Below are positions 41,650 to 60,574 of a stretch of 64,000 nucleotides of DNA, piece after piece. This DNA is from Minisyncoccota bacterium (GTDB lineage Bacteria; Patescibacteriota; Minisyncoccia; Phycocordibacterales; GWA1-40-21). A program made the translations under genes and the position numbers. Every line of letters begins with the position of its first letter. Position 1 is the first letter of the stretch. The DNA lies in contig JBAZYH010000003.1 in NCBI GenBank assembly GCA_041659365.1, positions 7,678-71,677 on the forward strand, written 5' to 3'. The notes below the pieces were generated by a model. The model saw only the letters and a program-made list of their open reading frames with translations. It made no database searches and was not told where the DNA came from.

Positions 41650-41757
41650 AATACCACTAATATTATCACATAATTTAATATATTAATTTAATAAAAAGAC
41701 ACGACCATATTATGTACCGTGTCTTAAAGTCTCGTCGAAGTGAACTCCTCCAGAAGT

Positions 41758-42399
41758 CTAACCGATAAAATGAGTGCCTGCTAGACCAATAAGGCTATTG
41801 GGGTTCTTACCATCCCAATGGACTGTTCCCTTAACAACTTCATTGGTAACAGACCATTGAAACAGGTGCTCGGCTTTATTTACCCGAACAGCAAGACTGT
41901 CTGCAGTATCACTTGAACGAATATCCACAGAACACCGAAAGAACACAGGACCTTGATCATATTTCTCTGTAACAAAGTGCATACACACTTCAGAGTATAC
42001 GATTTCATCACGCTTGAATGCAGCCAAGACTGCTTCATGAACATGATGACCATACATTCCTGGTCCACCAAATCGCGGAAGTGGTCCAGGGTGAATGTTG
42101 ATTGTCTTGTCCGGCGGAAGTCCAGTTACGAGCTTCAGCCAACCAGATAAGGCAACAAAGTCTGCCCCAGTTTCTTTGATATATCGCTGATAATTCTCTG
42201 CTGTCCAAGGACCAGCAAAATGGAAGAAAGGGACACAAAGTTTTTGTGCCCGATTGTAAACCCCACCATTGGCATAGTTCGAAACTACGCCAACAATGTG
42301 TGCTTCCAGTTTACCTTCACGTGACGCTTCGACAAGCTTTTGAAATCCAGAACCACCACCAGTACTATCACCTGACGCAAAAACAAGTAGATTTTTCAT
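41758..42399 (-). CDS. purN: Phosphoribosylglycinamide formyltransferase (PurN-like); foreign GC composition (~45%)
   Basis: VFASGDSTGG N-terminus and formyl-transferase core INIHPGPLPRFGGPGMYGHHVHEAVL (cf. NIHPSLLP...H). GC content is well above the window background. Confidence 0.7.
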   Translation of the reverse strand: MKNLLVFASGDSTGGGSGFQKLVEASREGKLEAHIVGVVSNYANGGVYNRAQKLCVPFFHFAGPWTAENYQRYIKETGADFVALSGWLKLVTGLPPDKTINIHPGPLPRFGGPGMYGHHVHEAVLAAFKRDEIVYSEVCMHFVTEKYDQGPVFFRCSVDIRSSDTADSLAVRVNKAEHLFQWSVTNEVVKGTVHWDGKNPNSLIGLAGTHFIG

Positions 42400-42568
42400 C
42401 TGCTAGTTTCCTTTCATTGTTTAAAAAACATTTAATCTCAGAGCTAACTCTACCAAAGGTTTTTATATAAATCAATTAAACAAAAAGAACCCCTAAGCCG
42501 CCATTACAGCAAGCTTAGGGGTTCATAGAGAACATCAAGGATTAAAAACCTTCGAACCTCACAATAAC

Positions 42569-43351
42569 TTAACGATTTTTCAGACACCATTCTCTGGCAT
42601 TCTGAAACATCTTAAGCCACGGCGAAGCTTCCAGATCCTTCTTCCATGATTCGGGCATATATGACCATTGCCACTTCAAGAAACACCTTTCAGGATGAGG
42701 CATCATTGCAAGATGCCGTCCATCAGGCGAACAGAGAGCCGTCAATCCGTGTCCCGAACCATTCGGGTTAAACGGATATTTTTCTGTCGGCTCATTATTC
42801 GAATCCACATAGACGAGAGGTGCAAGATTTTTCTCAAACACTTCATCTAGTATTTTCAAATTGGGAAACACCAACTTTCCTTCACCATGAGCAATATGGA
42901 TACCAAGTGTTGATCCTTCCATATCCGCAAGTAGTACTGACGGACTTGGTTGAATCTTCACTTGACTCCACCTGGACTCAAATCGCCCAGACTTGTTGTG
43001 AATAAACCGCGGTTGAATTGTTTCGTCCAATCCTTTCCACGGCACCCAACCAAGTAATGCAAACAACTGACACCCGTTACAGACTCCCAAGGAGAACGTA
43101 TCTTTCCGGTCGTAAAACCGGTCAAACATTTCTCTGAGAATCGGGTTGAACTTAATTACTCCAGCCCAACCTTTGGCACTCTCAAAGACATCCATGTACG
43201 AGAACCCGCCGGTAGCGACAATACCCTGGAATTCCTCCAGACTTATCCTTCCCGCCAGTAAGTCACTCATTGTGATGTCATAAGGATCCAAACCAGCGGC
43301 AAAAAATGCCGCCGACATTTCACGATCACCGTTCGAGCCTTCTTCACGCAA
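42569..43351 (-). pseudogene. purL: 3' fragment of a large-type FGAM synthase (purL) gene: C-terminal class-I glutamine amidotransferase domain only
   Basis: REEGSNGDREMSAAFFAAGL...GVCNGCQ...MMPHPER is collinear with the last ~255 aa of ~1300-aa PurL. The reading frame is abruptly replaced at 43352 by recombinase-derived sequence. GC content ~45%. Confidence 0.8.
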
Positions 43352-43356
43352 GACGG

Positions 43357-43701
43357 CAAATAAATATGTTTACTACGGCTGTACTCGAGCAAGAAATATT
43401 AATTGCAAAGAAGGTTATATTGAAGAAAAAGTTCTTATTAATCAGCTTTTAGAGATAATAGACAAAATTGATTTAGATTCTTCAGGAATAAAGAAAAAAC
43501 TCAGTGCAGAAATTGAACGCCACAAAAAATTCCATTCAAATATAATGGGTAAAAAGAATGAAGTGTATGAAGCAAAGGATGTTGATGTAAGAAACTATGC
43601 AAAGTACCTATTAACTGATGGAACAATGTTTGAAAAACGGGACTTGTTGGTGTGTTTAAGGAGTAAGCTTTTACTTAAGAATAAATTTATTGATTTAGAT
43701 T
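43357..43701 (+). pseudogene. 3' fragment of a large serine recombinase gene (near-identical copy of the last ~115 codons of CDS 48113-49417)
   Basis: Translates to KYVYYGCTRARNINCKEGYIEEKVLINQLLEIIDKIDLDSSGIKKKLSAEIERHKKFHSNIMGKKNEVYEAKDVDVRNYAKYLLTDGTMFEKRDLL, near-identical to residues ~320-434 of the intact recombinase. Confidence 0.8.
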
Positions 43702-45491
43702 AATGATCTATCATTTAAATCAACACCATCTAATGCTGATATAGATCCTGTTGGGGGTTCAGTAATTTCTACTTCTGGACCACGTCCAAAACCCATAGTA
43801 TAGAAGAATTTTCCATACCTGTATTTCATATCATCAGGTAACAAAACATCTTTCATAAACTTTTCATTAACCATCAGAGTATCGGTATCTAAAAGAGGTT
43901 TTAGATCAATATAAAGAAGCCGTCTCATTCGTTCAGTTTGTTCATATTTCCATCCTCTCCCTTTTCTATCTGCACTTGTAGCGAGCGCAAACCCAAAAAA
44001 AGTTAGGTAGCTTCTTAATACACCTGGATAATGTTTTTTAATAACATTGATGGCTATCTGTTCCCAAATTCTTTTTTCAAATGGTGCTATATAACCTTGC
44101 TTATACTGACTTTCATAAATCATACCGTGTAATAATTCTAGTACGGTATGGTATGTATCATTTGTATGTTTAATGTAGTCTAAATGTGTAAAAGCTTGAT
44201 ATAAAGTAGCGGCAATCCCCTCATTAATAGTTGAGTTAGAGTAAAATCCCGCTTCTGTAGCAGTTTTCTCACGTTCAATTACTACTTGATTAAATTCATC
44301 TTCATAAGCAAGAAACGGGTAATCATGACCAAGAAAATTAGCAATTATGTGTAGCGACCACCATTTGTCTTTCAATACATATTTTGTATCAACACCACGT
44401 TCCTCTTCAGTATTAATTTCCAAACATAAATTATTAAATATTGAACTCAAATGAGAGAGTCCGTCATTGATATGACGAGCAGGAGCTAAACCCGTTTTTA
44501 AATATGCTTCTATTGCCTGTGAGAGAGCTTCTATAAAAACTTCAATCTGTATATTATTTAAACCAGATTGCATTTTGTAATCAATGGATGGCCAACTAAA
44601 TATATTAAAATTTGAAAGAATAAATGTAGATCCAAAAAGACTCCCGTAAAGATTAGTGGAAAGTGCGAGCCCACTCTTATCAAGGTGTGTATAGAGATAA
44701 GAATTTTGGTCAGAAAATAAATTTCTTACAATTCTGGGGAACCCTCGCACTCGCTGTTCAGTCAATTTATGTTCTTCTAGTATAAATATTATGTAACGAA
44801 GCGCATCTAATCTTTTTGTGGTTATTAAATCTACTATAGAAGCTTCGCCAAGAATCACATCAAGAATATTAATTGCAGATTGAGTTCCTTTGTTGTTGTA
44901 ATCTTGTTTTGCAAATTGACAGATATTATCCAAATTTTCTAAAAGTGCATTTAAAATTACATTGAGTCGTTCAGGGTTTGATCTAGATAATTCTCTAACC
45001 ATAACTTCATAAAATTTTCTTGAATTCTCTACCTTAAAAAGTTTTTTATTCGTGGCTTGTACAAAAAGAAACAATATTGAAAATGCTATTAAAATACTTG
45101 CTAAAATTTGCCAAAAAATCGATAATTGAAATACATACACAGGATTCTCAATAAGAATTATAGAAGAAATTATTGAAAATATAACTCCCAATGAAAGAGT
45201 TATAAAAACAACAGGTTGAATATAACTTTTAACTCGTAGTGCAATAAACCACTCTTCTTTTCTAAATTGATAAATTGCAAGCAAAATTGCTATGGAAGCT
45301 AATGCTTCGCCGACAGAGAAAAATATTGGTGGGTTTTGATAAGGATAGTTTGTTAAATTAAGAGTTAGAAAATGCATAATTGATTCAGCTACAGTTCCTA
45401 AACTATTTTTCGGAAGATAAATTAGTATAAAGAAAAAAACACAAGCAATAAGTTTGTAAAAATCGGCTTTTGTAATTTTTTCGTCTTCCAT
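43695..45491 (-). CDS. Hypothetical 598-aa protein: N-terminal 4-TM region plus large cytoplasmic alpha-helical domain
   Basis: No recognisable catalytic motif. Located inside the island next to the recombinase fragment. Confidence 0.45.
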   Translation of the reverse strand: MEDEKITKADFYKLIACVFFFILIYLPKNSLGTVAESIMHFLTLNLTNYPYQNPPIFFSVGEALASIAILLAIYQFRKEEWFIALRVKSYIQPVVFITLSLGVIFSIISSIILIENPVYVFQLSIFWQILASILIAFSILFLFVQATNKKLFKVENSRKFYEVMVRELSRSNPERLNVILNALLENLDNICQFAKQDYNNKGTQSAINILDVILGEASIVDLITTKRLDALRYIIFILEEHKLTEQRVRGFPRIVRNLFSDQNSYLYTHLDKSGLALSTNLYGSLFGSTFILSNFNIFSWPSIDYKMQSGLNNIQIEVFIEALSQAIEAYLKTGLAPARHINDGLSHLSSIFNNLCLEINTEEERGVDTKYVLKDKWWSLHIIANFLGHDYPFLAYEDEFNQVVIEREKTATEAGFYSNSTINEGIAATLYQAFTHLDYIKHTNDTYHTVLELLHGMIYESQYKQGYIAPFEKRIWEQIAINVIKKHYPGVLRSYLTFFGFALATSADRKGRGWKYEQTERMRRLLYIDLKPLLDTDTLMVNEKFMKDVLLPDDMKYRYGKFFYTMGFGRGPEVEITEPPTGSISALDGVDLNDRSLI

Positions 45492-45521
45492 GAAATGGAT
45501 TATACCAGAATAACCCCTTTA

Positions 45522-45551
45522 GGTCTTTCGATACTTTTATTCTTTGCTGCG
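45522..45551. repeat. att-like direct repeat copy 1 (GGTCTTTCGATACTTTTATTCTTTGCTGCG)
   Basis: Shares GGTC(C/T)TTCGATACT...CTTTGCTG with the copies at 54781 and 55588. Confidence 0.55.
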
Positions 45552-45655
45552 ATGTCTGGTCTAGTACGTACTGCACTAGATGTGATAAAGCTATTTTAGC
45601 ATATTCTAGACTCAGTCCCTAACCTGTTTAGGTCTATAATTATTCACGATAGCTT

Positions 45656-45865
45656 TAACAGTAAATACTGTTAATTTACTGTTAAAACCTTATTTTTACG
45701 CTATCACTTTTTTTATACTATTTTATGACCTTCTTGCAGTATTAACTGCATATTTACTGCAAGAACTACAAAATGACTTTTTATAAAATTGATGATTTTA
45801 GTCTATTTTTTATCTATTCTTAAAAAGCTGCTTTGCCAGTATTTACTGGCGATTTACTGGCAAAA
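45656..45865. repeat. Three related operator/iteron-like sites, each an inverted repeat followed by a direct repeat of TTTACTG(GC)
   Basis: CAGTAAATACTGTTAATTTACTG (45656-45690), GCAGTATTAACTGCATATTTACTGC (45738-45768), and GCCAGTATTTACTGGCGATTTACTGGC (45832-45865). Confidence 0.5.
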
Positions 45866-46027
45866 TAATAAAAAACACTTTTTATTATTAAACATGTTTT
45901 TTGATTACTTTTTAGGCAGTGTTCTAACACGTTTACAACATATATGTCAAATTAGTTGTTATGATTAATACAAAAATACCGTTCCCTATTTCAGAAACAG
46001 TATCTCTGTATTAATATATATTATAGA

Positions 46028-46693
46028 TTATTTATATACTTCCAATGATCCAGAAAATGCAGTAACTTCAGCAACTTTTTCATTTGAATATGCATCTAGA
46101 ACTTGGAAATGATGATATCCGGTTATTTTCTCTTTAAGAGTTGCTATTTTAGCCAAAAAGTCTTTCTTAAAAGCTACTGTTTGTGTATACCAAATTTTTC
46201 CTACATATATAACATTCGCTTTATTAGAAAACTCATATGAAGTTACAAGTCCCGCTTGTTTAGCTAAAGAAAATACAGAATCTAATTCTTTTTGTGCTTT
46301 TTGTTTTTCTTCTTCAGAAATAACATTTTTTGTAGTTGTACTTTTTACTACCTCTTTATTAGTATTTTGTATATTACTGTTATTAATTTGATTATTTACA
46401 CTACTAGTAAAACCAGGATTTCCATTAAATCCAGAAAAAGAAAGTAGTATTAACACAATAGCAACTAGAAAAACTTCTTGTTTGCCAGATAATATAAAAT
46501 TATATTTTTCTTTTATTTTCTTAGATACTGGAGGTAATAATATAAGACCTACAATTATTAGTATGACCTTATAAAATAAATTCATTCCTATACCACCTAA
46601 CCCTGACAACACAAAAAATATTCCAAATATCCAATTCCATTTTGAAGTTTTTGGTTGAACCTTAACTTCAGAAGGCTGATTTTCATTATTCAT
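46028..46693 (-). CDS. Hypothetical membrane protein (221 aa)
   Basis: Two N-terminal TM helices, an Asn/Ser-rich linker, and a C-terminal soluble domain. Confidence 0.4.
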   Translation of the reverse strand: MNNENQPSEVKVQPKTSKWNWIFGIFFVLSGLGGIGMNLFYKVILIIVGLILLPPVSKKIKEKYNFILSGKQEVFLVAIVLILLSFSGFNGNPGFTSSVNNQINNSNIQNTNKEVVKSTTTKNVISEEEKQKAQKELDSVFSLAKQAGLVTSYEFSNKANVIYVGKIWYTQTVAFKKDFLAKIATLKEKITGYHHFQVLDAYSNEKVAEVTAFSGSLEVYK

Positions 46694-46958
46694 AAAACTC
46701 TAGCGGGTTTTAATCGATAGAGGTAGAGCCTTCGTGAACAAAGAGCTCCCCGCCATCGCGATAGAACCTTTCGGCCCTACCCATACCAGTTTCCCGATAT
46801 GACCCGCTAGAGTGACTCTGACGAGGAGTCCTTTGTTCTCTAGCGGGTTTTGCAACCATATCCTTATTTCTAAGGGGTTAGGTCGACTTTTATTAAATTG
46901 TTATTGATATGATAGCACAATAAAAGCTATCATAAAAGTATACTAGCTTAAATTAAAA

Positions 46959-48065
46959 TTATTGTGTAGTAAAATTATCTACTTCTTCAAAAAAAGATTC
47001 AATTATTTTATCTTTCCTGTCAGAATAAGCAAACTCAAATATACTACTTAGTATTGCTTCTTCAATAATTCCGCCTATTATATATGGTTTAATATCACTA
47101 TTGGGTTTTATATAATACAGACATCTATTTATAGTAATTGGTAAGTAAATTAAAAAATTTTGATTTAATTCCCACAAAAAAATACCCAAAGATCTAAATT
47201 CATTAATATCATAAATATTAGCTGGGCTATCGGATAAATAAAAGAAAGCAGGTTCTTTTGATTCTAACATTCTTAATTCATATTTATACAACAACCCTGA
47301 TAAATAGTCAGCCGTTAATATTGATATTTTAATAATTAAATTTTCCATTCCAACTAAAGATTGATTGTTTTTATTTGTAAATTTAAAATATTCTACTGGA
47401 TTTATATTATAATAATTATCAAAAAGTGCTTTTTTAAAAAAATCTTTTTTTGTCATTTCCTCTATATTAATCTTTTTTTCTAAACTTAAATATTCTAAAA
47501 TTAATCTAATTTGAAGAAAAAATTTTGGAGTTCTTGTATATTGAAAAGCAATAAAAGAAGTCAAAATGCTTCTCTCAAAATTCGTCAAATTTATTTCATC
47601 ATTTTTAATTATTTTATTAATTATTCTTGACGTATATTTTTCTAAGGTTAAAGCAAAAATTTGCTTTTCTATAAAGTCACTTTGTTGCTTAGTTTCTTTA
47701 TCTCTAAAAGAATATAAATTAGGTGTACAAGCAGCCTCCTTATAGATTGAAATTGGATTATTTTTTTTAAAATATCCGTACTGATAAATTTGTCCTGTTC
47801 TAGGAATACTAAATCTTTTTAATAAAAATTTAGGAATATAGTGGTGAACAGCTTTTTTGTGTTCCAAAACATATACATCCTTTATTAACTTATTATAAAT
47901 ATTAAAAATAAACTTAGCTAAAAAAACTTTATCGATTTCCTTATCTAGACAATAAGACATAATTTTATCTGCTAAGATTAATCTTTGGTGATTAATTATC
48001 TTATTAATCTTATTAAAAATAATCATATACAATATATTATACTTTAATATAAAAATAGTTATCAA
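46959..48065 (-). CDS. DUF4238-like protein
   Basis: HHYIPKFLLKRFS resembles the DUF4238 N-terminal HYVPQFYLKNF signature. The true start is probably the internal Met at ~47960. Confidence 0.45.
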   Translation of the reverse strand: MITIFILKYNILYMIIFNKINKIINHQRLILADKIMSYCLDKEIDKVFLAKFIFNIYNKLIKDVYVLEHKKAVHHYIPKFLLKRFSIPRTGQIYQYGYFKKNNPISIYKEAACTPNLYSFRDKETKQQSDFIEKQIFALTLEKYTSRIINKIIKNDEINLTNFERSILTSFIAFQYTRTPKFFLQIRLILEYLSLEKKINIEEMTKKDFFKKALFDNYYNINPVEYFKFTNKNNQSLVGMENLIIKISILTADYLSGLLYKYELRMLESKEPAFFYLSDSPANIYDINEFRSLGIFLWELNQNFLIYLPITINRCLYYIKPNSDIKPYIIGGIIEEAILSSIFEFAYSDRKDKIIESFFEEVDNFTTQ

Positions 48066-48112
48066 CTCCTCAAAACTAGACTTCTCAACTTTCTTAGAGT
48101 ATTTGTGTTGTC

Positions 48113-51683: not shown

Positions 51684-51685
51684 TT

Positions 51686-52366: not shown

Positions 52367-52370
52367 ATTT

Positions 52371-54569
52371 TTAATTTGATGGTAACCAGATACGAAATTT
52401 AGCTCCTTTTAATTTTTGATCTTTTGTTACTTCTCGATCTCCACCTAATTCGTCGACGGTAGATTTAACAATTGTAAGTCCCAATCCTGTACCTTCTTCT
52501 TTACCATTTTTATCTTTCTTTGTAGTAAATAATGGTTCCCAAATTATATCTGTTATTGTTTTATCAACACCGACTCCACTGTCTGCAACTACAATTTCAA
52601 AACCTTTTTTTAATCCAATATTTTTTTCATAAAGTTCAATACGAACTTTTCTGTTATTCGAAATCTGACTACAGGCAGTATATGCATTTGTTAAAAGATT
52701 CAAAACTATAGATTCAAGATCCATAACAAAAACTTTTGCGTCAACCTCTTTCAAGTCCTTTATTATCTCAATTTTAATTACCTTAAAGGCTTCTTCAACT
52801 TCATTGATTACAACCTCTACAGCGCTTTTTACATTTACTTTTTGACGGGTTCTTTTATCTTTTCTAACACGGGCCATGGCAAATGCACCCCAAGAAGAAA
52901 CTTGCTTTGCATATCCAAGAGAAGTACTTAATTGATCTAAAGCTCTTTTTACATTTGGTCCCGTTTTAAGTGAAAGAGAAGATTGTGCAGCTGAAACCCC
53001 CGAACGGAAAAGTGATACTGCTGTTTGAGTCTCGTGTCCAAAAACGGCAGCCGCTATACCAACAGTAGCAAGGCCACTCAAAACTCGATTATTATCAAGT
53101 AACTCCTCAAATCTTTTTTTTGTTTCCTCTGTTCTTTTAATAACATCGGCAATTTGTCCGATAGATTCTTTATTTTCTTTTCCAATTCCAGACCCAAGTT
53201 TATTACTTAGACTTTCAAGATCTTTTTGGAAAGTTTCAAGATTTTGTCTATAATTATCTACCTCTTCAATTAATCCGGCTTTATTATTTTTTTCATTTTG
53301 TTTTTTTTCAATTAATGCTTTTTCGTGTCTATGTTTTTCAATCAAAGTGACGCAAGCGAGAGTTAATGCTCTTAAATCATAAAAAGCATCACTTTCAATA
53401 AGACCCTCTCTTGAAGCACCGTCTATTAGTTGTGGATTAGTATCTCTACCAATAGCAACTGCTCCAACTATTTGATGGGATGAGACTTTATAAGAAGGTC
53501 GAAGTAAACCAGCAGGATCTCTTTCTTTTCTTTGGGCAAGCCCTAACCAATCACCGGCAGGTTCATTATTATAACCATAAGGTTTTACACTGATCTGATC
53601 CCTGTATATTTTAATACCAAGATTTTTATCTAAAAAGTTTCTTAGTCCAGAAAAACTAAGTCCTTTTTCTAAAAGCAATGGGTTATTTTTTGTTCGTCCA
53701 AAAAATAAAATATCAATTGATACTGGTCCACATTTAAGAGTGTTGTTGAATCCTATATCTGTATTTACTCTTTGTGAAAGTTTATCCCAGGATATTTCGT
53801 TTTTATAATAAAGATTTTTAGAATTAATTTTTTCAATTATTTTATATTTTATTTTTTGTGTTTTTTCATCAAAAATTGCTTGAAGAGAGATTTCCGACGC
53901 CTCATAATATGAAGATTTTACTACTCCATTTAATTCTTCAACAAGATGATTATGAAATCGTATTTCAAAATCTTTTACAGCTGAAAAGGGTGAGATGAGA
54001 GCAGTAAGTTCACTGTAAACCTGTTCGATATCTACTTTTAACCATGTTTGTCTTAAATTTGAAATCAATATTTCTGTACCAGTATTTCGATCAGATTTGG
54101 GTATTTTTATGTTCTGAGTATTTAATATACTAACCTGTATATCTGAAAGATCCTTGCCGTCAACATTAAACTGTTCCCAGTTAACAGAAAGTTTTAATGG
54201 TGTGATTTCGCTAGTTTTAGTTATAAGTGAAAGTTTTTCACCTAATCTATCCGCAGAAAGACGCCCGATGCCTTTTTCACCAGTTTTACGTCTTGATTTT
54301 TTAGTAAGTTTTATTAATTTTTTATCAGAAAAACCAATACGTAACCAATTTTCTTCAAGTTGAGGACCTGTCATACCAATACCATTATCAGCGACACGGA
54401 TATTATCCTTATTTATTTCTACTTCCACGACAGTAGCATCTGCGTCATAGCTGTTTTTTACCAATTCTAAAAGAGCTGTTGTTGGATTTTTAATACTATC
54501 ACGTCCTAGATTAATAACTGTCCGTGCATCAATAGTAAACGATTTATTTTTTTTATTTTCTTTAAACAT
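52371..54569 (-). CDS. 732-aa protein with two GHKL ATPase domains: N-terminal MORC/HATPase_c_3-like and C-terminal histidine-kinase-type HATPase_c preceded by a possible degenerate H-box
   Basis: N-terminal ELVKNSYDADA (N-box), DNGIGM (G1), GEKGIGRLS (G2). Central FGHETQ (H-box candidate). C-terminal LLTNAYTA (N), VADSGVGV (G1), GTGLGLTIVK (G2). Confidence 0.65.
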   Translation of the reverse strand: MFKENKKNKSFTIDARTVINLGRDSIKNPTTALLELVKNSYDADATVVEVEINKDNIRVADNGIGMTGPQLEENWLRIGFSDKKLIKLTKKSRRKTGEKGIGRLSADRLGEKLSLITKTSEITPLKLSVNWEQFNVDGKDLSDIQVSILNTQNIKIPKSDRNTGTEILISNLRQTWLKVDIEQVYSELTALISPFSAVKDFEIRFHNHLVEELNGVVKSSYYEASEISLQAIFDEKTQKIKYKIIEKINSKNLYYKNEISWDKLSQRVNTDIGFNNTLKCGPVSIDILFFGRTKNNPLLLEKGLSFSGLRNFLDKNLGIKIYRDQISVKPYGYNNEPAGDWLGLAQRKERDPAGLLRPSYKVSSHQIVGAVAIGRDTNPQLIDGASREGLIESDAFYDLRALTLACVTLIEKHRHEKALIEKKQNEKNNKAGLIEEVDNYRQNLETFQKDLESLSNKLGSGIGKENKESIGQIADVIKRTEETKKRFEELLDNNRVLSGLATVGIAAAVFGHETQTAVSLFRSGVSAAQSSLSLKTGPNVKRALDQLSTSLGYAKQVSSWGAFAMARVRKDKRTRQKVNVKSAVEVVINEVEEAFKVIKIEIIKDLKEVDAKVFVMDLESIVLNLLTNAYTACSQISNNRKVRIELYEKNIGLKKGFEIVVADSGVGVDKTITDIIWEPLFTTKKDKNGKEEGTGLGLTIVKSTVDELGGDREVTKDQKLKGAKFRIWLPSN

Positions 54570-54780
54570 ATTAAAACTATTTACTCTAAAATATTAAAAT
54601 ACTCTGCATACTGCAGTTTCACCTGAAGAATCAACTAACCTGATATATCATCTCATATTTTATGACTTTTCTCAATTAATTTACAACAACACATAATATT
54701 ATGGATGTGTTTAATTTTAATATAATAGAAATCAAACTTAGATAGAATCTTATACCAAATTTTAAAATTCTACCGCTCAT

Positions 54781-54819
54781 GGTCCTTCGATACTAATTTC
54801 CTTTGCTGCTGCTCTAGGA
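54781..54819. repeat. att-like direct repeat copy 2
   Basis: GGTCCTTCGATACTAATTTCCTTTGCTGCTGCTCTAGGA. Confidence 0.55.
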
Positions 54820-54904
54820 CTGTCACTAGGTCTAGTACTGGCTATAAATATACACCTAATTAAAAAATTCGCTAGTTTTTTTAGTTCTAGTCCTAAGTTT
54901 AAAA

Positions 54905-55414
54905 TTAATTTAAAAATGTTTTAATTTTTTCAACAGCTTCGTTAAAATCATCTCCAACTTTAATAACCACTAATGGTAATTGAGCTTCTTTTAATATTTC
55001 TATTTTTTCGTTATCAGTTTCAATCTGCTTGAGTTTGTTATGATACCCTCCATTTAATTCTACCGCGACAACTGGTTTGAAATATAAATCACAGATTATA
55101 AAATCTATATGTTTGGGCATAATTTTTCTTGCCATATTTTTATATCCATAGTATTCATTGGTTTTTATTGGCTCAACAATATCAGCCAAGCGCATATTCG
55201 GGAAAATATGATAGTTGTGTGGTAACTTATTTTGTAATTCAAAAAATAGAGCAGATTCTGTTTTGTTCATTAAACTAAATTTTTTATTATATCTAGCTAA
55301 TTTTGGTTCTGGTGTTTTTACTAAAATATCAGAATTGTTTATACTATGCCATTTCCTGTTTAGTATATAAATAAGAAAAAGTAATATTACTACCCACATT
55401 AAAAATATATTCAT
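54905..55414 (-). CDS. DUF2726-like (restriction-endonuclease-fold) membrane-anchored protein
   Basis: ESALFFELQNKLPHNYHIFPNMRLADIV...HIDFIICD...PVVAVELNGGYH matches the DUF2726 pattern (E..Y..L......V.PQV.LADV...HVDFVLCD..P.LAIELDD.SH). Confidence 0.5.
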   Translation of the reverse strand: MNIFLMWVVILLFLIYILNRKWHSINNSDILVKTPEPKLARYNKKFSLMNKTESALFFELQNKLPHNYHIFPNMRLADIVEPIKTNEYYGYKNMARKIMPKHIDFIICDLYFKPVVAVELNGGYHNKLKQIETDNEKIEILKEAQLPLVVIKVGDDFNEAVEKIKTFLN

Positions 55415-55587
55415 ATTTTAATTGTAACATTTTTGTAATAATTAACTATTTTGAGAATATATAAACCAAAAAAAAGGAACTTGGTCTAGAACCAAAATGA
55501 CGGCTTAAAACATATAAATTAAAAAGTAACGGCTTTAGGACCAGAAACGGTGATTTTAAAATACATTGAAAAATATAGACCATTTCT

Positions 55588-55661
55588 GGTCCTTCGATAC
55601 TTTTTTACTTTGCTGTGGAACTAGGAATCGAACCGAATTCATTATAACACAAAGCTTTTCA
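55588..55661 (-). repeat. att-like direct repeat copy 3 fused to a tRNA 3'-end-like fragment (T-arm GGTTCGATTCC + acceptor-like TAGTTCCACAG)
   Basis: Minus-strand reading is ...GGTTCGATTCCTAGTTCCACAGCAAAGTAAAAAAGTATCGAAGGACC. No complete cloverleaf could be folded. Confidence 0.45.
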
Positions 55662-55727
55662 GAGATCAGGCTATCTAGCTCTAGTTGCATAGGTACTTGA
55701 GCATAACTCAAGTTGCCTTATCTAGGT

Positions 55728-56495
55728 TTATTTCTCGTGTTGTTCAGACATACCCCACAGACCATCAAACCATGCTTGCATAGTGTCATGATGTTCCTTC
55801 GAAGTTATAAGCACACAATAACAGTCTTTCATTGAAGATATATAAAGTGTTTTATCATCATATAAAAAAACAGTACTTTTAAAATTACCTCTCATTACTT
55901 CTGGTACAATTCTAACATCTGAAACTCCTTTGTAATATTCATTAAATGTTTTTTTATCGATACTTCTTTCCCAAAGATTTTTTGTTTTAATTCCACGCTT
56001 TTTCCTTTCTTCCACAAAGAGTTTTACAAATTCACCACCTACTTGCCAAAAAAAGTTTTCTTTAGGTGCAACAGAATTTATTTGTTTACTTTTACAATAG
56101 AGCATATCCATAATCAGACTTTTTACTGCTCCAACTCCTTCATAAAAAGCAACTACCGGTCTTTGACTTTCTGAAGAGTTCTCAACTTTAAGGGAATCAA
56201 CAAGATCAGATATATTATCTTTAAGCTGTTTGGTTTCAAGATTTTTTTCTTCAGCGAGTGTATTTAATTTTTCAATAGATTCCAGAGAAAAACGTTTATC
56301 ACCTTCAAGACCTGTTTTACTTATCAAACCACGTTTTTCCAAACAACCTAAAGCATAATAAACCGTAGGTCTTTTTTGACGAGTTATTTTTACTAAGTCT
56401 CTAGCAGTCCTTGCTCCAGATACCATGGCCAAATATATAGTGACTTCTGAATCACTCAATCCTAAATCTAAAAGATGTTTTCTTGGTTCTTGCAT
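55728..56495 (-). CDS. TrmB-family transcriptional regulator
   Basis: N-terminal LGLSDSEVTIYLAMVSGARTARDLVKITRQKRPTVYYALGCLEKRGLI winged-helix typical of TrmB, plus a C-terminal effector domain. Confidence 0.7.
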   Translation of the reverse strand: MQEPRKHLLDLGLSDSEVTIYLAMVSGARTARDLVKITRQKRPTVYYALGCLEKRGLISKTGLEGDKRFSLESIEKLNTLAEEKNLETKQLKDNISDLVDSLKVENSSESQRPVVAFYEGVGAVKSLIMDMLYCKSKQINSVAPKENFFWQVGGEFVKLFVEERKKRGIKTKNLWERSIDKKTFNEYYKGVSDVRIVPEVMRGNFKSTVFLYDDKTLYISSMKDCYCVLITSKEHHDTMQAWFDGLWGMSEQHEK

Positions 56496-56602
56496 AATGA
56501 TTATTTATTATTTGTATAATGGTTATTATACACGATTGACTCTTTTTGTCAAATCAATAGACTTGTAATAGAAACAGTTCATTGAAAAGAAAGGATTCTC
56601 TT

Positions 56603-57211
56603 ATGAAAGCTTTTGGATTAACGGGTAACGCTGGTTGTGGTAAAAGCACTGTTGCTTCCCTATTTTCAAGGTATCAGGATGTCTTGATTATTGATTGTGA
56701 TCGTGTGGCTAAAGAAATTCTATCTAACCAAACATTACAAAGAGAAATCAACTCTATTCTTGGTACGGATGTTTTTCCAGATGGCAAAGTAAATCGGAAA
56801 CTCATCGCAAACATAATCTTCAAACAACCAGAAAAGAAACGACTGATGGAGGAATTAGTTCATCCTATTGTATGGGCAACTGTACAAAAGATGATTCAAG
56901 AAACATCTAAAGGAACAGTTTGTATCGTAGAGTCAGCTATTATCTACGAGACAAAAAGTGAAAATCTTTTTGAAGCTGTTATTGATGTAACTTGTGATTA
57001 TGAGGAACAAGTTCGTCGGCTTCGAGAAAATCGTAAGATGGAAGATTCTGACATTCAAGCTCTGCTTACTAGTCAGCTTTCATCATTTGAAAAAGAAAGG
57101 AGAAGTCATTTTGTGATAAACACAAACTGTACTTTAGAACAACTGAGTGAAAGGGTTGAAAAACTCTACAGAGAACTCAAACAGAAAGGAACGAACCATG
57201 AAAACGCGTAA
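56603..57211 (+). CDS. coaE: Dephospho-CoA kinase
   Basis: MKAFGLTGNAGCGKSTVASLF P-loop and CoaE architecture. ATG at 56603 with AAGGA RBS (the track ORF starts at a TTG 21 nt upstream). Confidence 0.8.
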   Translation: MKAFGLTGNAGCGKSTVASLFSRYQDVLIIDCDRVAKEILSNQTLQREINSILGTDVFPDGKVNRKLIANIIFKQPEKKRLMEELVHPIVWATVQKMIQETSKGTVCIVESAIIYETKSENLFEAVIDVTCDYEEQVRRLRENRKMEDSDIQALLTSQLSSFEKERRSHFVINTNCTLEQLSERVEKLYRELKQKGTNHENA

Positions 57212-58334
57212 AGTTGTGTACGCAGCAAGTCTCGATCCCATCACAAATGGACATCTAAATGTTATCGAGCGTTTTGCACCACTATACGACGAATTTATCG
57301 TTGTTGTGGCTGTAGATGCTCGCAAGACATACATGTTCACTCCAGAAGAACGAGTGAGTATGACTAAGTCGGCTGTCGCTCACATTTCAAATGTTACGGT
57401 TGATGTCTGTATTGGCCGTTATGTTGTGAAATATGCCGAATCAGTTGGTGCACAGGTCATAATTCGTGGTTTGCGAAATTTCAAAGACCTCGAAGACGAA
57501 CAGGTTCTTGCGGAAGAAAATCGTAGGATATGTTCGACAATCGAAACCATCTGGGTACCTTGCTTGCCGAATCTTATGCATATAAGTTCGAGTATGGTTA
57601 AGGGACACGTTGGTATTGACCCTGACTGGGAAGAACAAGTTGTGCGTTCAGTACCCAGTATCGTAGTTACCAAACTCAAGGAGAAGTACATGCTTAACAG
57701 AGCAAAGAAACATTGGGCTTCACTAATGGCTTTACTTGGAAATCCAAAAGGATCAGAATTGGTCTTTGCGGAACTCCTTTTGAAATATAGTGAACCTCAT
57801 CGTGCTTACCATACACTCGAGCATGTTGTAAATATGCTCGATGAATTGGAATCGGTCGTCGATAAACTGAATGATAAAGACGCTGTAAAAATGGCCGTCT
57901 GGTATCATGACGTTGTTTACGATCCGATGACTAAAGATCATCACGTAGTCGCCGACAATGAAGTGAGAAGTGCATATCGAGCCGAGCTTGATCTCGAAAA
58001 GCTCGGTTTGTCTTCAAACTTTAGTGAGAGAGTTCAAGCTTTAATCATGGCAACAACACACACAGAGAAAGTCACTGACTCTGATACCATGTTTATGGTT
58101 GATCTCGATCTTGCCATTCTCGGTAAATCAGAAAAGGAATTCGAAAGTTACGAAAAAGGAATCCGCAAAGAGTATGACTGGGTATCAGAAGCCGACTTTT
58201 GTGTAGGTCGAAGCAAGGTACTTGAGTCATTTTTGAATCGTGAGACGGTATATTCTACTGAAGTCTTTCGGAGTCGGTATGAAAATACCGCTAGAAAGAA
58301 TATGGAGAAATCACTCACATTACTGAAACAGTAA
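57198..58334 (+). CDS. coaD: Phosphopantetheine adenylyltransferase (CoaD) fused to a C-terminal HD-domain phosphohydrolase
   Basis: VVYAASLDPITNGHLNVIE (PPAT HxGH-type motif), then ~230 aa with YHTLEHV...VWYHDVVYDP (HD motif). Overlaps the coaE 3' end by 14 nt. Confidence 0.7.
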   Translation: MKTRKVVYAASLDPITNGHLNVIERFAPLYDEFIVVVAVDARKTYMFTPEERVSMTKSAVAHISNVTVDVCIGRYVVKYAESVGAQVIIRGLRNFKDLEDEQVLAEENRRICSTIETIWVPCLPNLMHISSSMVKGHVGIDPDWEEQVVRSVPSIVVTKLKEKYMLNRAKKHWASLMALLGNPKGSELVFAELLLKYSEPHRAYHTLEHVVNMLDELESVVDKLNDKDAVKMAVWYHDVVYDPMTKDHHVVADNEVRSAYRAELDLEKLGLSSNFSERVQALIMATTHTEKVTDSDTMFMVDLDLAILGKSEKEFESYEKGIRKEYDWVSEADFCVGRSKVLESFLNRETVYSTEVFRSRYENTARKNMEKSLTLLKQ

Positions 58335-58341
58335 AAGCTCA

Positions 58342-58379
58342 AGAGCCTACAAAATAGAAATATTTTGTAGGCTCTTTTT
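58342..58379 (+). terminator. Rho-independent terminator
   Basis: AGAGCCTACAAAATA...TATTTTGTAGGCTCT hairpin followed by TTTTT. Confidence 0.75.
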
Positions 58380-58608
58380 AAATATATATTATATTTTATA
58401 ACTAATTTACATCATTGGTTCTATTCCTAGTCCCATCATGCAAAAAACGCTCTATGCAGAGCTAAAAAATCCTTATATTATCGCGTCTCGAGCTACGCAC
58501 GAGTTGGCTGGACGTATGGTATGAAGTTGGAACATTTTTAATACTTAAGTAATAGAAAAGGCCGACAGAAGATTAAACTCCTGTCGGCCCAAAAACCTTC
58601 CTTCCTCT

Positions 58609-59073
58609 TCACTTCTCCTTGTATTCTTCCAGAACTTGAATGAATGGGTACTGCTTTGCACTGTAAGCATAACCACGCATGATATCCCTCATACCCCGAT
58701 ATTCTTCTTTGTATCCGAGGTTAAAGGAAATGCGATTTGCCCACCAGTAGTAGTACCACCCTTCCGTTTCAATAAATTCTCTCCAGTGTCCTGGATCGAA
58801 CTGAACCAGCTTTGCACTGGCTCCACGACCCGCAGACATTACAGCCACACGAACTGGCCGGACATCCACACGAACCACAAAAACCCACGGTGGTGTTATG
58901 TGTATGCCACCTTTTTCTTGAATCCACATTTCGCCAGTAATCTTATTCCTGGCGATACCGATCTGGGTAGGTTCTGTATAGTTCACAAAACCAATGTAAA
59001 AGAAAAAGGTAATGGTCAAAGAAACAACGATCGTCTTTGACCATTTCTTTTCAAAGAGTTGATGTACGTTCAT
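58609..59073 (-). CDS. Membrane-anchored hypothetical protein, GC-rich paralog B (possible SPFH/band-7-like fold)
   Basis: Start Met shares an ATGA overlap with the upstream paralog's stop codon. Contains VRVDVRPVRVAVMSAGRGASAKLVQFDPGHWREFIE. GC content ~50%. Confidence 0.45.
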   Translation of the reverse strand: MNVHQLFEKKWSKTIVVSLTITFFFYIGFVNYTEPTQIGIARNKITGEMWIQEKGGIHITPPWVFVVRVDVRPVRVAVMSAGRGASAKLVQFDPGHWREFIETEGWYYYWWANRISFNLGYKEEYRGMRDIMRGYAYSAKQYPFIQVLEEYKEK

Positions 59074-59567
59074 TTTGTCACACTGAACATTTTGTTCGTC
59101 GAAGCTTCTGCACATTGATTTGGGGCAATTTCTTGGATTACCTCCAAAAACGGGCAATCCCTTCCACCGGCCAGATCAAAGGCATAGCATTTTAGGATCT
59201 CCAACAACCAAGTCGTGTTGTCACCAGCATCACGACCATGCCACTCAACGAATGTCTCCAGCCCGTCCGGATTGAACCGTACAAGCTTGGCATTCAACAC
59301 ACGCTGATTTGCACTGATTGTGAGCTGATAAGGACGAAGGTCAATCGCGTGCACGCTGTAACGAATCGGCGTGCGAATGACCCAGCCCGTATGGTTGACC
59401 GTCTCGATCTTGCCGGTAGCCTTGTCGAAGACGAAGCCCATCTGGTAATTGTCGACGAGCGTAACCCACAAGGCAAACCAGATGAGAAACCCGATGAAAG
59501 CGACAACCAAAGAAACAGCGAGACCAATCACGATGTTTTTAACCATATTCCTGTTAATGAATTTCAT
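59070..59567 (-). CDS. Membrane-anchored hypothetical protein, GC-rich paralog A
   Basis: N-terminal TM. VHAIDLRPYQLTISANQRVLNAKLVRFNPDGLETFVE parallels the downstream paralog. GC content ~50%. Confidence 0.45.
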   Translation of the reverse strand: MKFINRNMVKNIVIGLAVSLVVAFIGFLIWFALWVTLVDNYQMGFVFDKATGKIETVNHTGWVIRTPIRYSVHAIDLRPYQLTISANQRVLNAKLVRFNPDGLETFVEWHGRDAGDNTTWLLEILKCYAFDLAGGRDCPFLEVIQEIAPNQCAEASTNKMFSVTK

Positions 59568-59678
59568 CTTTCCTTGAACCTTTCTTTTCTTCCTAGAAAC
59601 TGCTAGGACAGTTATACCTTACAAGGTACTATAAGAATCTATATCTAATTATACACATAATTATATATATGTCAAGTG

Positions 59679-59749
59679 CTGGGGGACTTGGATTCGAACC
59701 AAAATAAACGGATTCAAAATCCGTTGTCCTACCATTAGACGATCCCCCA
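59679..59749 (-). tRNA. tRNA-Gln (anticodon UUG)
   Basis: Minus-strand sequence is TGGGGGATCGTCTAATGGTAGGACAACGGATTTTGAATCCGTTTATTTTGGTTCGAATCCAAGTCCCCCAG. It has a 7-bp acceptor stem, D-arm TAATGGTAG, anticodon stem ACGGA/TCCGT with loop TTTTGAA, and T-loop TTCGAAT. Confidence 0.8.
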
Positions 59750-59753
59750 ATAT

Positions 59754-60443: not shown

Positions 60444-60487
60444 TAGTTCTAGTATACATGAATAATGTTCATAAGTATATCAATATC

Positions 60488-60518
60488 AACCTGGACTGCT
60501 TCATCATGTTCGCAAAGA
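60488..60518. repeat. Family-C palindromic repeat copy (AACCTGGA...CGCAAAGA)
   Basis: Matches the copies at 6415, 9093, 16056-16134, 38566 and 60757. Confidence 0.55.
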
Positions 60519-60574
60519 CATACAAAAATCTGTATAATAAAAAAGAATTGTACAAACAAAAGAAAGGGGGTTGC

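Follow-up and report, generated by a model that had tools for sequence, protein, structure and literature searches.

A composite genomic island beside tRNA-Gln of a Candidatus Paceibacterota bacterium, probably built by serial insertions of the large serine recombinase type

In staphylococci, SCC elements insert at the 3'-end of rlmH and accrete there in tandem, with short repeats of the target between the elements and with pseudo-SCC segments that carry no recombinase. Classical tRNA islands and prophages, which use tyrosine integrases, share several traits with the locus described here: they adjoin a tRNA gene, carry a partial direct repeat of its 3'-end on the far side, occur in tandem arrays, decay, and are atypical in composition. 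The phage integrases of the phiC31, Bxb1 and A118 type combine a Resolvase domain, a Recombinase domain and a Zn-ribbon with coiled coil. Composite islands of the SCCmec type, with Ccr large serine recombinases (LSRs) and tandems of SCCmec, ACME and COMER, are described in three papers (PMC7029739, PMC9430635, PMC5964201). For Patescibacteria, hundreds of islands, including one restriction-modification island, have been predicted by composition, with at most 13% of genome length attributed to horizontal gene transfer and most individual gene transfers taking place between Patescibacteria; tRNA, integrase and recombinase are absent as words from the main text of that study (PMC12455944).

The locus analysed here belongs to the window, by which we mean the whole stretch of 64,000 nucleotides under study, and comprises ~18 kb (~41.7-59.68 kb) at the 3' side of a tRNA-Gln(ttg) gene (59678-59749, minus strand; ARAGORN and Rfam). 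This gene is the right boundary and the integration target; its 3'-end points into the island, which immediately adjoins it. The ~18 kb are a genomic island of an ordinary kind in which decayed mobile elements have piled up, with an integrase of phage type, genes for defence and stray genes of foreign origin. We consider it probable that 41.7-59.68 kb grew by accretion at tRNA-Gln into a composite island of this Candidatus Paceibacterota genome, which belongs to an uncultured bacterium of the CPR, through serial insertions of the LSR type. The features listed by a preceding sequence-only reading were all recovered in place by Pfam, ARAGORN, Rfam and repeat searches. The site-specific recombinases of the island are an intact LSR and the 3' fragment of a second one; the Pfam search found no tyrosine integrase in it, only recombinases of the serine type, and the island proteins scanned gave no PHROG match to prophage structural, packaging or lysis genes. 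The earlier framing as a classic tRNA island needs a correction: since the integrase is a phage-type LSR and no tyrosine integrase, an SCCmec-like composite island comes closer as an analogue than a classical tRNA island.

The window has an average GC content of ~31%, which is raised at 41.8-43.3 kb (44-48%), 57.1-58.3 kb (41-43%) and 58.6-59.5 kb (41-53%). Calculated per gene, GC3 lies between 0.13 and 0.25 in all large backbone ORFs, compared with purN (0.32), purL' (0.46), coaE (about 0.25-0.27), coaD-HD (0.39), mem182 (0.45) and mem165 (0.58), and the gene boundaries form steps in GC3. The sliding-window GC and tetranucleotide check that had been proposed did reveal a deviation, the tetranucleotide distance from the 1-41 kb background peaking at z=4.9 (42-44 kb) and z=6.6 (57-59 kb); two windows outside the island, 14-16 kb and 62-64 kb, deviate too (z=3-3.6). 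From 43.7 to 56.5 kb GC3 is native-like, and the most AT-rich genes there deviate only moderately (z=2-3.5). The claim that GC rises in blocks is therefore correct for three sub-blocks, namely purN/purL', coaD and the membrane genes, and fails for most of the island, since the central 12 kb are not atypical; their native-like GC3 counts against the island reading. All six island proteins present in the collection, purL' aside, form singleton clusters at 90% identity.

The insertion history is probably recorded in three direct repeats of 40 nt on the minus strand, for which the number expected in shuffles is 0. The best preserved, R3 (55587-55634), consists of 22 nt of the tRNA-Gln 3'-end followed by a flank motif; its GGTTCGATTCCTAGTTCCACAG (55613-55634) agrees with the tRNA-Gln of the window in 18 of 22 nt and with that of the related locus L003 in 19 of 22 nt, 0 such matches being expected by chance. 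R2 (54780-54819) has the repeat with the flank motif, R1 (45521-45560) has kept the motif with a degenerate tRNA part, both retain the terminal CAG, and all three copies are oriented as tRNA-Gln. The motif CAGCAAAG-N6-AGTATCGAAGGACC (three copies, 0 expected) occurs only within the island and nowhere in the window outside these relics. In three related genomes AAGTATCGAAGGACC directly follows the intact tRNA-Gln, and the flank motif stands 13 nt past the intact gene in L179, L016 and L035; the R3 flank can be aligned to the native flanks of L179 and L016, and L035 shows this motif after its tRNA as well. The tRNA-Gln flank of L003 has AAAGTAAAAAA in common, and the present flank in the window is without the motif. 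Throughout 2.1 Mb of related loci the motif is confined to the three tRNA-Gln flanks and two other approximate matches (L043, L175). The three att-like repeats are relics of the tRNA-Gln 3'-end with its native downstream flank. Three points count against the island reading: a search for a relic at the left end of the island, between purN and the META-domain gene, came up empty, no crossover site could be defined within the relics, and serine recombinases normally leave no direct repeats of 40 nt. The relics and the intact target delimit four segments, numbered S1 to S4 outward from the tRNA, with two LSR genes or remnants, which is an arrangement of the SCC-like tandem kind.

In the build-up that we propose, phage-type LSR elements would have inserted repeatedly at the tRNA-Gln 3'-end or its flank, each insertion displacing the previous copy of tRNA 3'-end and flank outward, and the outcome would be the co-oriented relics R3, R2 and R1, which part the four segments from one another. 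TrmB, coaE, coaD-HD and the phage-like pair of membrane-protein genes make up S1 (55635-59677), a compositional mosaic, and S2 (54820-55586) is a stub with DUF2726 alone. An intact LSR is present only in S3 (45561-54779; 9.2 kb); this segment, which may still be mobile, also has a LOOT RNA, the genes of DUF4238 and of a membrane protein, and a defence-type operon. S4 (41.7-45.5 kb) would be what is left of an older element of related type, namely the gene of a 598-aa protein and an LSR 3'-end; the rest of its LSR gene would have given way to the GC-rich purN-purL' piece by illegitimate recombination at a microhomology. The anatomy, what the relics are, the return of LSRs to this site in relatives, the truncated purL and the outliers in composition are direct results; the order of the insertion events, their catalysis by the LSRs and the possible mobility of S3 we infer.

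The intact LSR of S3, LSR-II (48113-49417, plus strand), belongs to a phage integrase family by Pfam and phrog_95 (1e-66) and carries the domains Resolvase (PF00239, 4.7e-24), Recombinase (PF07508, 1.2e-15) and Zn_ribbon_recom (PF13408, 5.5e-7), as in the integrases of the phiC31 type. It shows 47-60% amino acid identity to LSRs of 21 IMG/VR contigs, among which a large terminase subunit adjoins in L184 and L193, and a homologue stands beside tRNA-Gln in L186. Judged by architecture and relatives it is a phage-type integrase; in contrast to phiC31-type phages, the window is without phage structural genes. An SSV-type partitioned integrase, with attP within the gene, was considered and disfavoured: among 19 homologues, synonymous-site identity around codons 300-330 (0.39-0.55) does not differ from that in the rest of the gene, and the breakpoints of LSR fragments are scattered over residues 239-374. 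Divergent from LSR-II is a DUF4238 gene (46959-48065, minus strand; Pfam 2.9e-27). The LOOT RNA (RF03000; 46760-46884, minus strand) matches its model in full length (positions 1-121) and scores 76.9 bits, where the gathering threshold is 46.4, and the gene of a 221-aa membrane protein (46028-46693, minus strand) lies 66 nt downstream of it. In four phage-like contigs, LOOT RNA was seen to co-occur with the LSR-II subfamily, placed with respect to the LSR as it is here.

The defence-type operon of S3 is encoded on the minus strand. It consists of an Eco57I-like type II N6-adenine DNA methyltransferase (49414-51039; Pfam, and PADLOC MTase_II PDLC03267 at 2.9e-152 over the full length), a PtuB-like HNH nuclease (51036-51683; HNH 4.5e-6, PtuB models down to 1.2e-20, NCBIfam PtuB below cutoff), a receiver-like protein (51686-52366; a weak Response_reg match of 0.0039) and a hybrid (52371-54569) of an N-terminal GHKL ATPase (HATPase_c_3, residues 30-150) and a C-terminal histidine-kinase core (HATPase_c, 617-731). 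The N-terminus of the hybrid resembles the BbrUII/HgiDII restriction-enzyme family, and its residues 465-731 resemble sensor-kinase cores. As to restriction-modification content, the methyltransferase is clear, and the nuclease candidates are the PtuB-like HNH protein and the protein with the BbrUII/HgiDII-like GHKL N-terminus. GHKL/MORC-type ATPases in restriction-modification operons were reportedly described by Iyer, Abhiman and Aravind in 2008. With such operons and with Detocs-like two-component defence the present operon shares a GHKL ATPase with nuclease and methyltransferase, a kinase core and a receiver-like partner; it differs in that none of the PADLOC system models accounts for the operon as a whole and that the receiver match lies below the Pfam cutoff.

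At the left end, in S4, a purN-like formyltransferase gene (41758-42399, minus strand; Formyl_trans_N 1.2e-20), GC-rich and foreign, has a match to the PurN model below cutoff. It is followed by purL' (42569-43351, minus strand; GATase_5 3e-102), the C-terminal glutamine amidotransferase domain, 260 aa in length, of a large PurL. This truncated foreign gene is cut N-terminally: L170 has a full-length PurL of ~1190 aa with whose C-terminus it shares 80% amino acid identity, and the identity is 86% with P0124, where the sequence runs on upstream into an AIRS_C domain. The foreign purN/purL' DNA abuts the interior of a second LSR gene, at an abrupt junction with the microhomology GACGnnAA (~8-10 nt). 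What is present of that gene, LSR-I (43352-43703, plus strand), is a related 3' fragment (residues 320-434) with an open frame, which compared with 49069-49402 of LSR-II shows 89%/78% nucleotide identity and, over LSR-II residues 320-432, 87% amino acid identity; no 5' remnant was found anywhere in the window. Convergent with it is the gene of the 598-aa protein (43695-45491, minus strand), a singleton cluster at 90% identity that has no match in Pfam, PADLOC, PHROG or NCBIfam.

S2 holds the DUF2726 gene (54905-55414, minus strand; Pfam 2.4e-20). In S1, a TrmB-family regulator of native composition (55728-56495, minus strand; Pfam; GC3 0.18) shows 68-70% amino acid identity to the TrmB beside coaE-coaD in L172-L174, and coaE-coaD of L175 is likewise preceded by a TrmB gene. 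The dephospho-CoA kinase gene coaE (56582-57211, plus strand; Pfam 6.9e-37) is followed by coaD fused to an HD domain (57198-58334, plus strand; Pfam; GC3 uniform at 0.33-0.42). The tandem paralogous membrane genes mem182 (58609-59157) and mem165 (59070-59567), both on the minus strand, are the most GC-rich genes of the window, with GC3 locally up to 0.8; they have no family match in Pfam, PHROG or NCBIfam, and the tandem recurs in the 636-kb phage LR756504.1 (47% and 40% amino acid identity).

On the right the backbone resumes with a 229-aa protein and dnaX (59754-61895, minus strand; Pfam and comparison), and the adjacency of dnaX and tRNA-Gln is kept in most relatives. The left flank has two paralogous M14 metallopeptidase genes (38822-40626, minus strand; M14 family by NCBI name), with homologues directly after tRNA-Gln in L003 and L096 and beside dnaX in L127; next to them the META-domain gene (40726-41649, minus strand; Pfam META 1.1e-16; GC3 0.15), with a homologue 8 kb downstream of dnaX in L016, is probably backbone. 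The 'empty site' of L003 and L096, in which M14 follows tRNA-Gln, is only indicative, because a search for a strain-level comparator found none, the best relatives have 75-82% DnaX identity, and synteny in the group is generally poor. An LSR gene or 3' remnant, convergent with tRNA-Gln and downstream of dnaX-tRNA-Gln, occurs in at least eight other lineages (L013, L018, L022, L032, L100, L127, L172/L173, L179-L182, L186), and in L005 the tRNA-Gln 3'-end is partially repeated at two places, 5.2 and 6.3 kb downstream. The unit of flank, cargo and convergent LSR recurs as well, as R1, the 598-aa protein and LSR-I, as R2, the operon and LSR-II, and in L179 as tRNA flank, two genes and an LSR fragment. 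The suggestion of serial integration and decay made from the sequence alone thus gains support from the tRNA-Gln relics, the relatives with M14 after the tRNA, the LSRs in other lineages and the truncated purL'.

How far the island extends to the right depends on TrmB-coaE-coaD/HD, a lineage-typical Paceibacterial cluster (TrmB-coaE-coaD in L174 and L175, coaE-coaD in L178). Since the cluster is conserved and stands beside tRNA-Gln-dnaX elsewhere in the same order, as TrmB-coaE-coaD-(small gene)-tRNA-Gln-dnaX in L172/L173 and a 108-kb contig, it may be backbone despite its position between the tRNA and R3. It is even possible, if on the unlikely side, that the right-hand 4 kb, with or without the membrane genes, are ancestral backbone, that only ~14 kb (41.7-55.6 kb) are mobile, and that coaD and the membrane genes owe their raised GC to alleles gained from a GC-richer Paceibacterium by homologous recombination; the native GC3 of TrmB, the stepwise rise of GC3 at gene boundaries and the 288 coaD-HD homologues, of which all named ones are Paceibacterota or Patescibacteria, would agree with this. 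However, with R3 left of TrmB the coa block lies between the tRNA and a displaced old flank, the closer relatives L002-L004 (DnaX 75-78%) are without a coa block near dnaX, and in L172, which is without the membrane-gene pair, TrmB borders on an LSR 3' fragment, as it should if the block travels as LSR-element cargo. The ancestral gene order that the sequence-only reading had set against its own proposal is thus found in part, for the 2.6-kb TrmB-coaE-coaD/HD sub-block, though R3 lies beyond it. Another reading takes the three 40-nt repeats as a shared promoter/operator or 5' leader of three transcription units, with no bearing on integration history. Each of them lies 30-210 nt upstream of the point where a minus-strand gene or operon starts, with a -10-like box after it, and the L179 motif sits between the tRNA and the start of the next gene; but the contiguity of R3 with 22 nt of the tRNA-Gln 3'-end, the fixed offset of the motif from the intact tRNA-Gln in three relatives and its restricted occurrence in the window and in the related loci make it improbable that this is all they are. 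The promoter and relic readings are compatible, for a displaced flank can carry a promoter, and the relic flank may also, or instead, act as promoter or operator.

A single prophage or ICE of ~18 kb in place of several elements would suit a contiguous block with an integrase gene beside a tRNA, yet two different LSR 3'-ends (~15% diverged), three internal att relics and at least four compositional classes, in the absence of phage structural or conjugation genes (Pfam, PHROG), make such an origin very improbable. As the source is a MAG contig and the purL'/LSR junction is abrupt, assembly or binning could also be blamed, with the GC-rich blocks as chimeric joins from other organisms of the metagenome; this is scarcely credible for blocks of 1-2 kb each with low-GC sequence on both sides, for a junction whose microhomology is shorter than assembly k-mers, and for a coaD block syntenic with other Paceibacteria.

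Read as serial accretion at tRNA-Gln, the locus has in common with SCCmec-type islands the LSR-type recombinases, the insertion at the 3'-end of one conserved gene, the tandem accretion with short direct target repeats between elements, some segments without recombinase and the accessory or defence-type cargo. It differs in that the target is the tRNA-Gln 3'-end and flank, not rlmH, that the repeats reach ~30 nt past the gene, that the LSR is of a phage-integrase family with terminase-adjoining relatives and not Ccr, and that the host is a Patescibacterium; with neither a Ccr-family recombinase nor an rlmH target, the likeness is one of analogy and not of membership. From classical tRNA islands it is set apart by serine-type recombinases only, and from the composition-predicted Patescibacteria islands (PMC12455944) by the target site, scars and recombinase family, which are resolved here; the insertion scars of this tRNA-Gln island are unusually readable. 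We advance, as a rather doubtful conjecture, that such accretion might be Patescibacteria-wide: a family of temperate phages or satellites with a large serine integrase would stack cassettes at the tRNA-Gln flank, as SCC does at rlmH, and LOOT would be a cis-acting leader in which the 3' strand of the second helix would have a choice of partners, one within LOOT, the other a copy of the 5' strand that sits at the start codon of the downstream cargo. If this were true, LOOT, so far an orphan RNA, would be a portable expression switch for exchangeable cargo.

The stretch derives from a contig of 73,165 nt in a metagenome-assembled Candidatus Paceibacterota genome, its proteins matching NCBI MFA5934545 onward exactly, and has a mean GC content of about 31%, with a GC3 of 0.13-0.25 in the large open reading frames (ORFs) outside the island. 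Blocks of raised GC had been proposed by the sequence-only reading at 41.7-43.35, 56.6-58.3 and 58.6-59.6 kb, and rises were indeed measured at 41.8-43.3 kb (44-48%), 57.1-58.3 kb (41-43%) and 58.6-59.5 kb (41-53%). The GC3 outliers are purN (0.32), the C-terminal PurL piece purL' (0.46), coaE (0.27), coaD-HD (0.39) and the paralogous membrane-protein genes mem182 (0.45) and mem165 (0.58), and the stepwise shifts of GC3 coincide with gene boundaries. The sliding GC and tetranucleotide check proposed with that reading bore it out in part: the tetranucleotide distance, with 1-41 kb as background, is greatest at 42-44 kb (z=4.9) and 57-59 kb (z=6.6), while the central 43.7-56.5 kb is native-like in GC3 and deviates moderately only in its most AT-rich genes. 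As to gene content, Pfam agrees with the intact large serine recombinase (LSR), DUF4238, DUF2726 and restriction-modification-like operon read there before, assigning an intact LSR gene (LSR-II, 48113-49417, plus strand), both DUF genes, TrmB, CoaE, a CoaD-HD fusion, and an Eco57I-type methyltransferase with an HNH protein, a receiver-like protein and a double-HATPase protein. The duplicated recombinase 3' fragment was recovered as LSR-I (43352-43703, plus strand), with 87% amino acid identity to LSR-II residues 320-432; its 5' remnant was sought across the rest of the window and none was found. The sole tRNA of the window is the minus-strand tRNA-Gln(ttg) (59678-59749), and it lies where the island had been said to end (59679-59749).

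The att-like direct repeats claimed for the island correspond to a 40-nt repeat with exactly three copies in the window, all within the island (R1, 45521-45560; R2, 54780-54819; R3, 55587-55634, minus strand), and 0 in shuffled sequences. On the minus strand, which is that of tRNA-Gln, their common core reads CAGCAAAG-N6-AGTATCGAAGGACC, and R3 is gaplessly preceded by GGTTCGATTCCTAGTTCCACAG, a tRNA-3'-end-like fragment of the kind anticipated, which matches the 3' 22 nt of tRNA-Gln at 18/22 positions in the window and at 19/22 in the related locus L003, no such match arising in shuffles. Moreover, the motif AAGTATCGAAGGACC follows the intact tRNA-Gln directly and at equal offset in the related loci L179, L016 and L035, the flanks of L179 and L016 being those taken into the alignment with the relics, and AAAGTAAAAAA is common to the flank of L003. 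Across 2.1 Mb of related loci, the flank motif is confined to the tRNA-Gln flanks of L179, L016 and L035 and two other approximate matches; the present tRNA-Gln flank of the window differs from it. Because R3 has the tRNA-end match and the flank motif is shared by relatives, R1, R2 and R3 are, as judged by this sequence comparison, displaced copies of the tRNA-Gln 3' end plus its native downstream flank, which is what repeated insertion at the 3' side of the tRNA predicts. The intact target for which the repeats were to be searched is tRNA-Gln itself.

Several related observations can be set beside these relics. Another tRNA-3'-end-like fragment, GGTTCTATTCCTAGTCCCATCA, lies between coaD and mem182 at 58416-58440 on the plus strand, in an orientation opposite to tRNA-Gln and R3, and forms with R3 an inverted pair bracketing TrmB-coaE-coaD; a tRNA-Gln fragment flanking the mem182/mem165 pair was looked for and none was found. 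With the flank seen in the relics called type A, two further conserved hairpin-forming sequence types, e.g. CCAACTTGAGCGAGGTTCGAGCGCACGAGTCGCGTCGAAC and ATGCTAAGTCAGGTGACTGACACGCAT, stand directly downstream of tRNA-Gln in Patescibacteria, type B in L004, L015, L023-L026, L090, L155, L168 and L172, and type C in L129, L134, L157 and L186. For the repeat designated D4, the 17-base core has 8 exact matches in IMG/VR, which by estimate is about the chance level, and none of them shows flanking similarity.

The relics partition the island into four segments. Next to tRNA-Gln, S1 (55635-59677) carries TrmB, coaE, coaD-HD and the two paralogous membrane-protein genes, and S2 (54820-55586) carries DUF2726 only. 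S3 (45561-54779), read from R2, starts with a hybrid of GHKL ATPase and histidine kinase, followed by a receiver-like protein, a candidate HNH nuclease of PtuB type and a type II methyltransferase (PADLOC PDLC03267, 2.9e-152); LSR-II, intact and convergent with these genes, comes next, and after it DUF4238, the LOOT RNA and a membrane protein. S4 (about 41.7-45.5 kb) comprises an orphan protein of 598 aa, the LSR-I 3' fragment convergent with it, purL' and purN. The unit of flank, cargo and convergent LSR is found twice in the window, at R1 and R2, and once more in L179. The defence-type operon of S3 (49414-54569, minus strand) is unusual in that its GHKL hybrid has a BbrUII/HgiDII-like ATPase at the N-terminus and a histidine-kinase core at the C-terminus; no PADLOC system model matched the whole GHKL-receiver-HNH-methyltransferase operon. 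Homologues of LSR-II with 47-60% identity occur in 21 IMG/VR contigs; in two of these, L184 and L193, the LSR gene comes after a large terminase subunit and ParB-methyltransferases, and in L186 it faces tRNA-Gln(ctg) at a distance of 120 bp. The island proteins scanned include no phage structural ones, and therefore the resident elements are remnants or satellites, not prophages.

No strain-level relative was present in the genome and metagenome collections scanned, the best DnaX identity being 82%, and exact-protein look-ups with DnaX, META and purL' returned no other contig. Across the clade the order dnaX, 229-aa gene, tRNA-Gln is kept. Homologues of the M14 metallopeptidase pair lie 40 nt to 1.1 kb after the tRNA in L003 and L096 and 19 kb away in the window (38.8-40.6 kb), which may point to an empty site of the kind that the proposed comparison with related genomes was to find. 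In L013, L018, L022, L032, L100, L127 and L186, tRNA-Gln and an LSR gene converge, the LSR gene lying 0.1-0.65 kb downstream, and lone LSR 3' fragments stand 1-4 genes from the tRNA in L179-L182 and L172/L173. In the Taylorbacteria-like L005, two partial tRNA-Gln 3' direct repeats (16311-16332 and 17409-17430), at 5.2 and 6.3 kb from the tRNA on its downstream side, bracket cargo genes with no integrase between them, an arrangement suggestive of a further decayed island here. With LSR genes and LSR fragments near tRNA-Gln in these relatives, the downstream side of this tRNA is therefore a recurrent hot spot of LSR elements in Paceibacteria.

On the dnaX side of the tRNA, the 229-aa protein (59754-60443, minus strand) has, judged by eye, a helix-turn-helix at its N-terminus as well as a LAGLIDADG-like motif (YWAEGSKE); it had no match in any family search. 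Its gene lies between dnaX and tRNA-Gln in the window, L002, L017 and L024, with relatives in 263 metagenome stretches. Further on, an approximately 60-nt repeat, TCTAyTAGTTTGyGTCGCGCTTCAATGGAC...GCGCGAC followed by a second hairpin and an A-run, occurs five times (60648-60744, minus strand; 62296-62356, 62376-62436, 62771-62831 and 63543-63603, plus strand), mostly within 61.9-64 kb, a nearly ORF-free region of 38-43% GC without Rfam match, and these may be repeated small-RNA genes or leaders.

We consider it quite probable that LSR-type elements would have inserted serially at the tRNA-Gln 3' flank, that the insertions would then have undergone deletion and illegitimate recombination, and that foreign DNA would have been captured into the island; the serial integration and decay surmised earlier fits the three tRNA-Gln relics, the hot spot in relatives and the truncated purL'. 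Scars, hot spot, truncated genes and compositional classes are observed directly in the locus and its relatives; the insertions would have been performed by LSRs, presumably in the order S4, S3, S2, S1, and S3, whose intact LSR is bounded by R2 and R1, may still be mobile. A long direct repeat such as that of the relics is unusual for serine recombinases, and no crossover site could be defined. The 5.7-kb unit between the two LSR 3' ends might also be read as a Campbell-type insertion, although a tandem of related elements is the simpler account of this arrangement.

An attP inside the LSR gene, with partitioning like that of SSV-type archaeal integrases, was suggested by the lone 3' fragments of the window, L172 (2923-3249) and L179 (7001-7351), which start within about 5 codons of one another, and by an att-like 15-mer in the LSR ORF of L196. 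It was ruled out, with synonymous-site conservation among 19 homologues showing no excess there and breakpoints in 81 short homologues scattered from residue 239 to residue 374 and clustering only mildly at 320-330. Paceibacterota contigs, some of them as long as 854 kb, widely carry short ORFs of 63-197 aa (P0251-P0331) whose homology is to the C-terminus of the LSR, at up to 84% identity; P0283, P0288 and P0319 are internal-deletion derivatives keeping only the first 25-70 and last 100-140 residues. As the homology search seems to list too few of the targets that far exceed the query in length, with no full-length PurL or LSR among the matches listed, no inference is drawn from all fragment matches being short.

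For TrmB-coaE-coaD the comparison with relatives went partly against the sequence-only reading, since L172/L173 and a 108-kb contig carry the block in the same order as the window beside tRNA-Gln-dnaX. The cluster is conserved also in L174 and L175, with coaE-coaD in L178, and every named one among 288 homologues of the CoaD-HD fusion belongs to Paceibacterota or Patescibacteria; because of this conservation, homologue range and placement, the sub-block is lineage-typical. It could then be backbone partly replaced by GC-richer alleles, GC3 being native in TrmB, intermediate in coaE and uniform at about 0.39 in coaD. The block, however, lies between the tRNA and the relic R3, and is absent near dnaX in the closer relatives L002-L004. 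In L172/L173 an LSR 3' fragment abuts TrmB where the block adjoins tRNA-Gln-dnaX. The position between tRNA and R3 and the absence near dnaX in L002-L004 tentatively favour cargo travelling with LSR elements.

The other GC-rich blocks are taken as foreign. purL' corresponds to the C-terminal 260 residues of a PurL of the large type; it is 80% identical to the full-length PurL of L170 (about 1190 aa) and 86% identical to P0124, which extends upstream into the AIRS_C domain. Its product is probably non-functional because the ORF begins three residues inside the amidotransferase domain. The homology junction of PurL and LSR-I lies at GACGGCAA / GACGATAA (43340-43365) with a microhomology of 8-10 nt, typical of illegitimate recombination, which indicates that the join probably arose in this way and not by site-specific recombination. 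The mem182/mem165 pair (58609-59567) has no family match and the highest GC3 in the window, locally up to 0.8; the identical tandem order occurs in L169, a 636-kb uncultured huge phage (LR756504.1, 9995-11061), with 47% and 40% amino acid identity. A small gene beside tRNA-Gln in L172, considered as a mem165 relative, was found unrelated.

LOOT RNA (RF03000) has been named among metagenome-based families (PMC7779021). Here it is oriented divergently to the LSR gene and located 0.16-4.4 kb upstream of it, in the window (46760-46884, minus strand) and in 4 of the 21 IMG/VR phage-like contigs (L184, 3457-3571; L186, 3454-3581; L187, 7717-7838; L194, 5676-5810), and it is absent from 20 other loci scanned. 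In all five loci it is followed by a GC hairpin, a T-run and then, at a total distance of 55-84 nt, a co-oriented but unrelated gene. In four of them (window, L184, L186, L187), a stretch of 8-14 nt just ahead of the start codon repeats the LOOT AAAA linker and the 5' strand of its second helix; this repeat co-varies with the helix between loci, with the hairpin and T-run lying between them, and in the window an exact 14-nt repeat, AAAACCCGCTAGAG, is shared by 46694-46759 and LOOT, thus present twice. The predicted pairing of the start-codon repeat with the helix 3' strand is stronger than in shuffled sequences for the window (z=-4.3, 0/500) and L186 (z=-2.8, 2/500), and is not better than shuffles in the remaining 3/5 loci. 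This suggests, short of proof, that LOOT may be a cis-regulatory switch acting through alternative pairing on exchangeable cargo.

Genomic islands of Patescibacteria, restriction-modification ones included, have already been reported (PMC12455944). By analogy, the closest counterpart would be the SCCmec-type composite island, with a working principle apparently common to both, whereas the Ccr recombinase and rlmH target, its hallmarks, are not those of the island here.

The genomes of Patescibacteria (CPR) are tiny, we know of no genetic tools for these bacteria, and their mobile elements have been little characterised. In the tRNA-Gln flank downstream of dnaX, the locus supplies a defined hot spot of recurrent integration, together with a candidate active serine integrase and sequences testable as att sites, and through its link with this integrase family LOOT, an orphan RNA from metagenomes only, acquires a genomic setting and a function that can be tested. 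The locus also illustrates in detail the entry of defence genes and stray metabolic genes (purN/purL', possibly coaD) into genomes of this kind, and the serine integrase with its att candidates could seed integration vectors for CPR bacteria.
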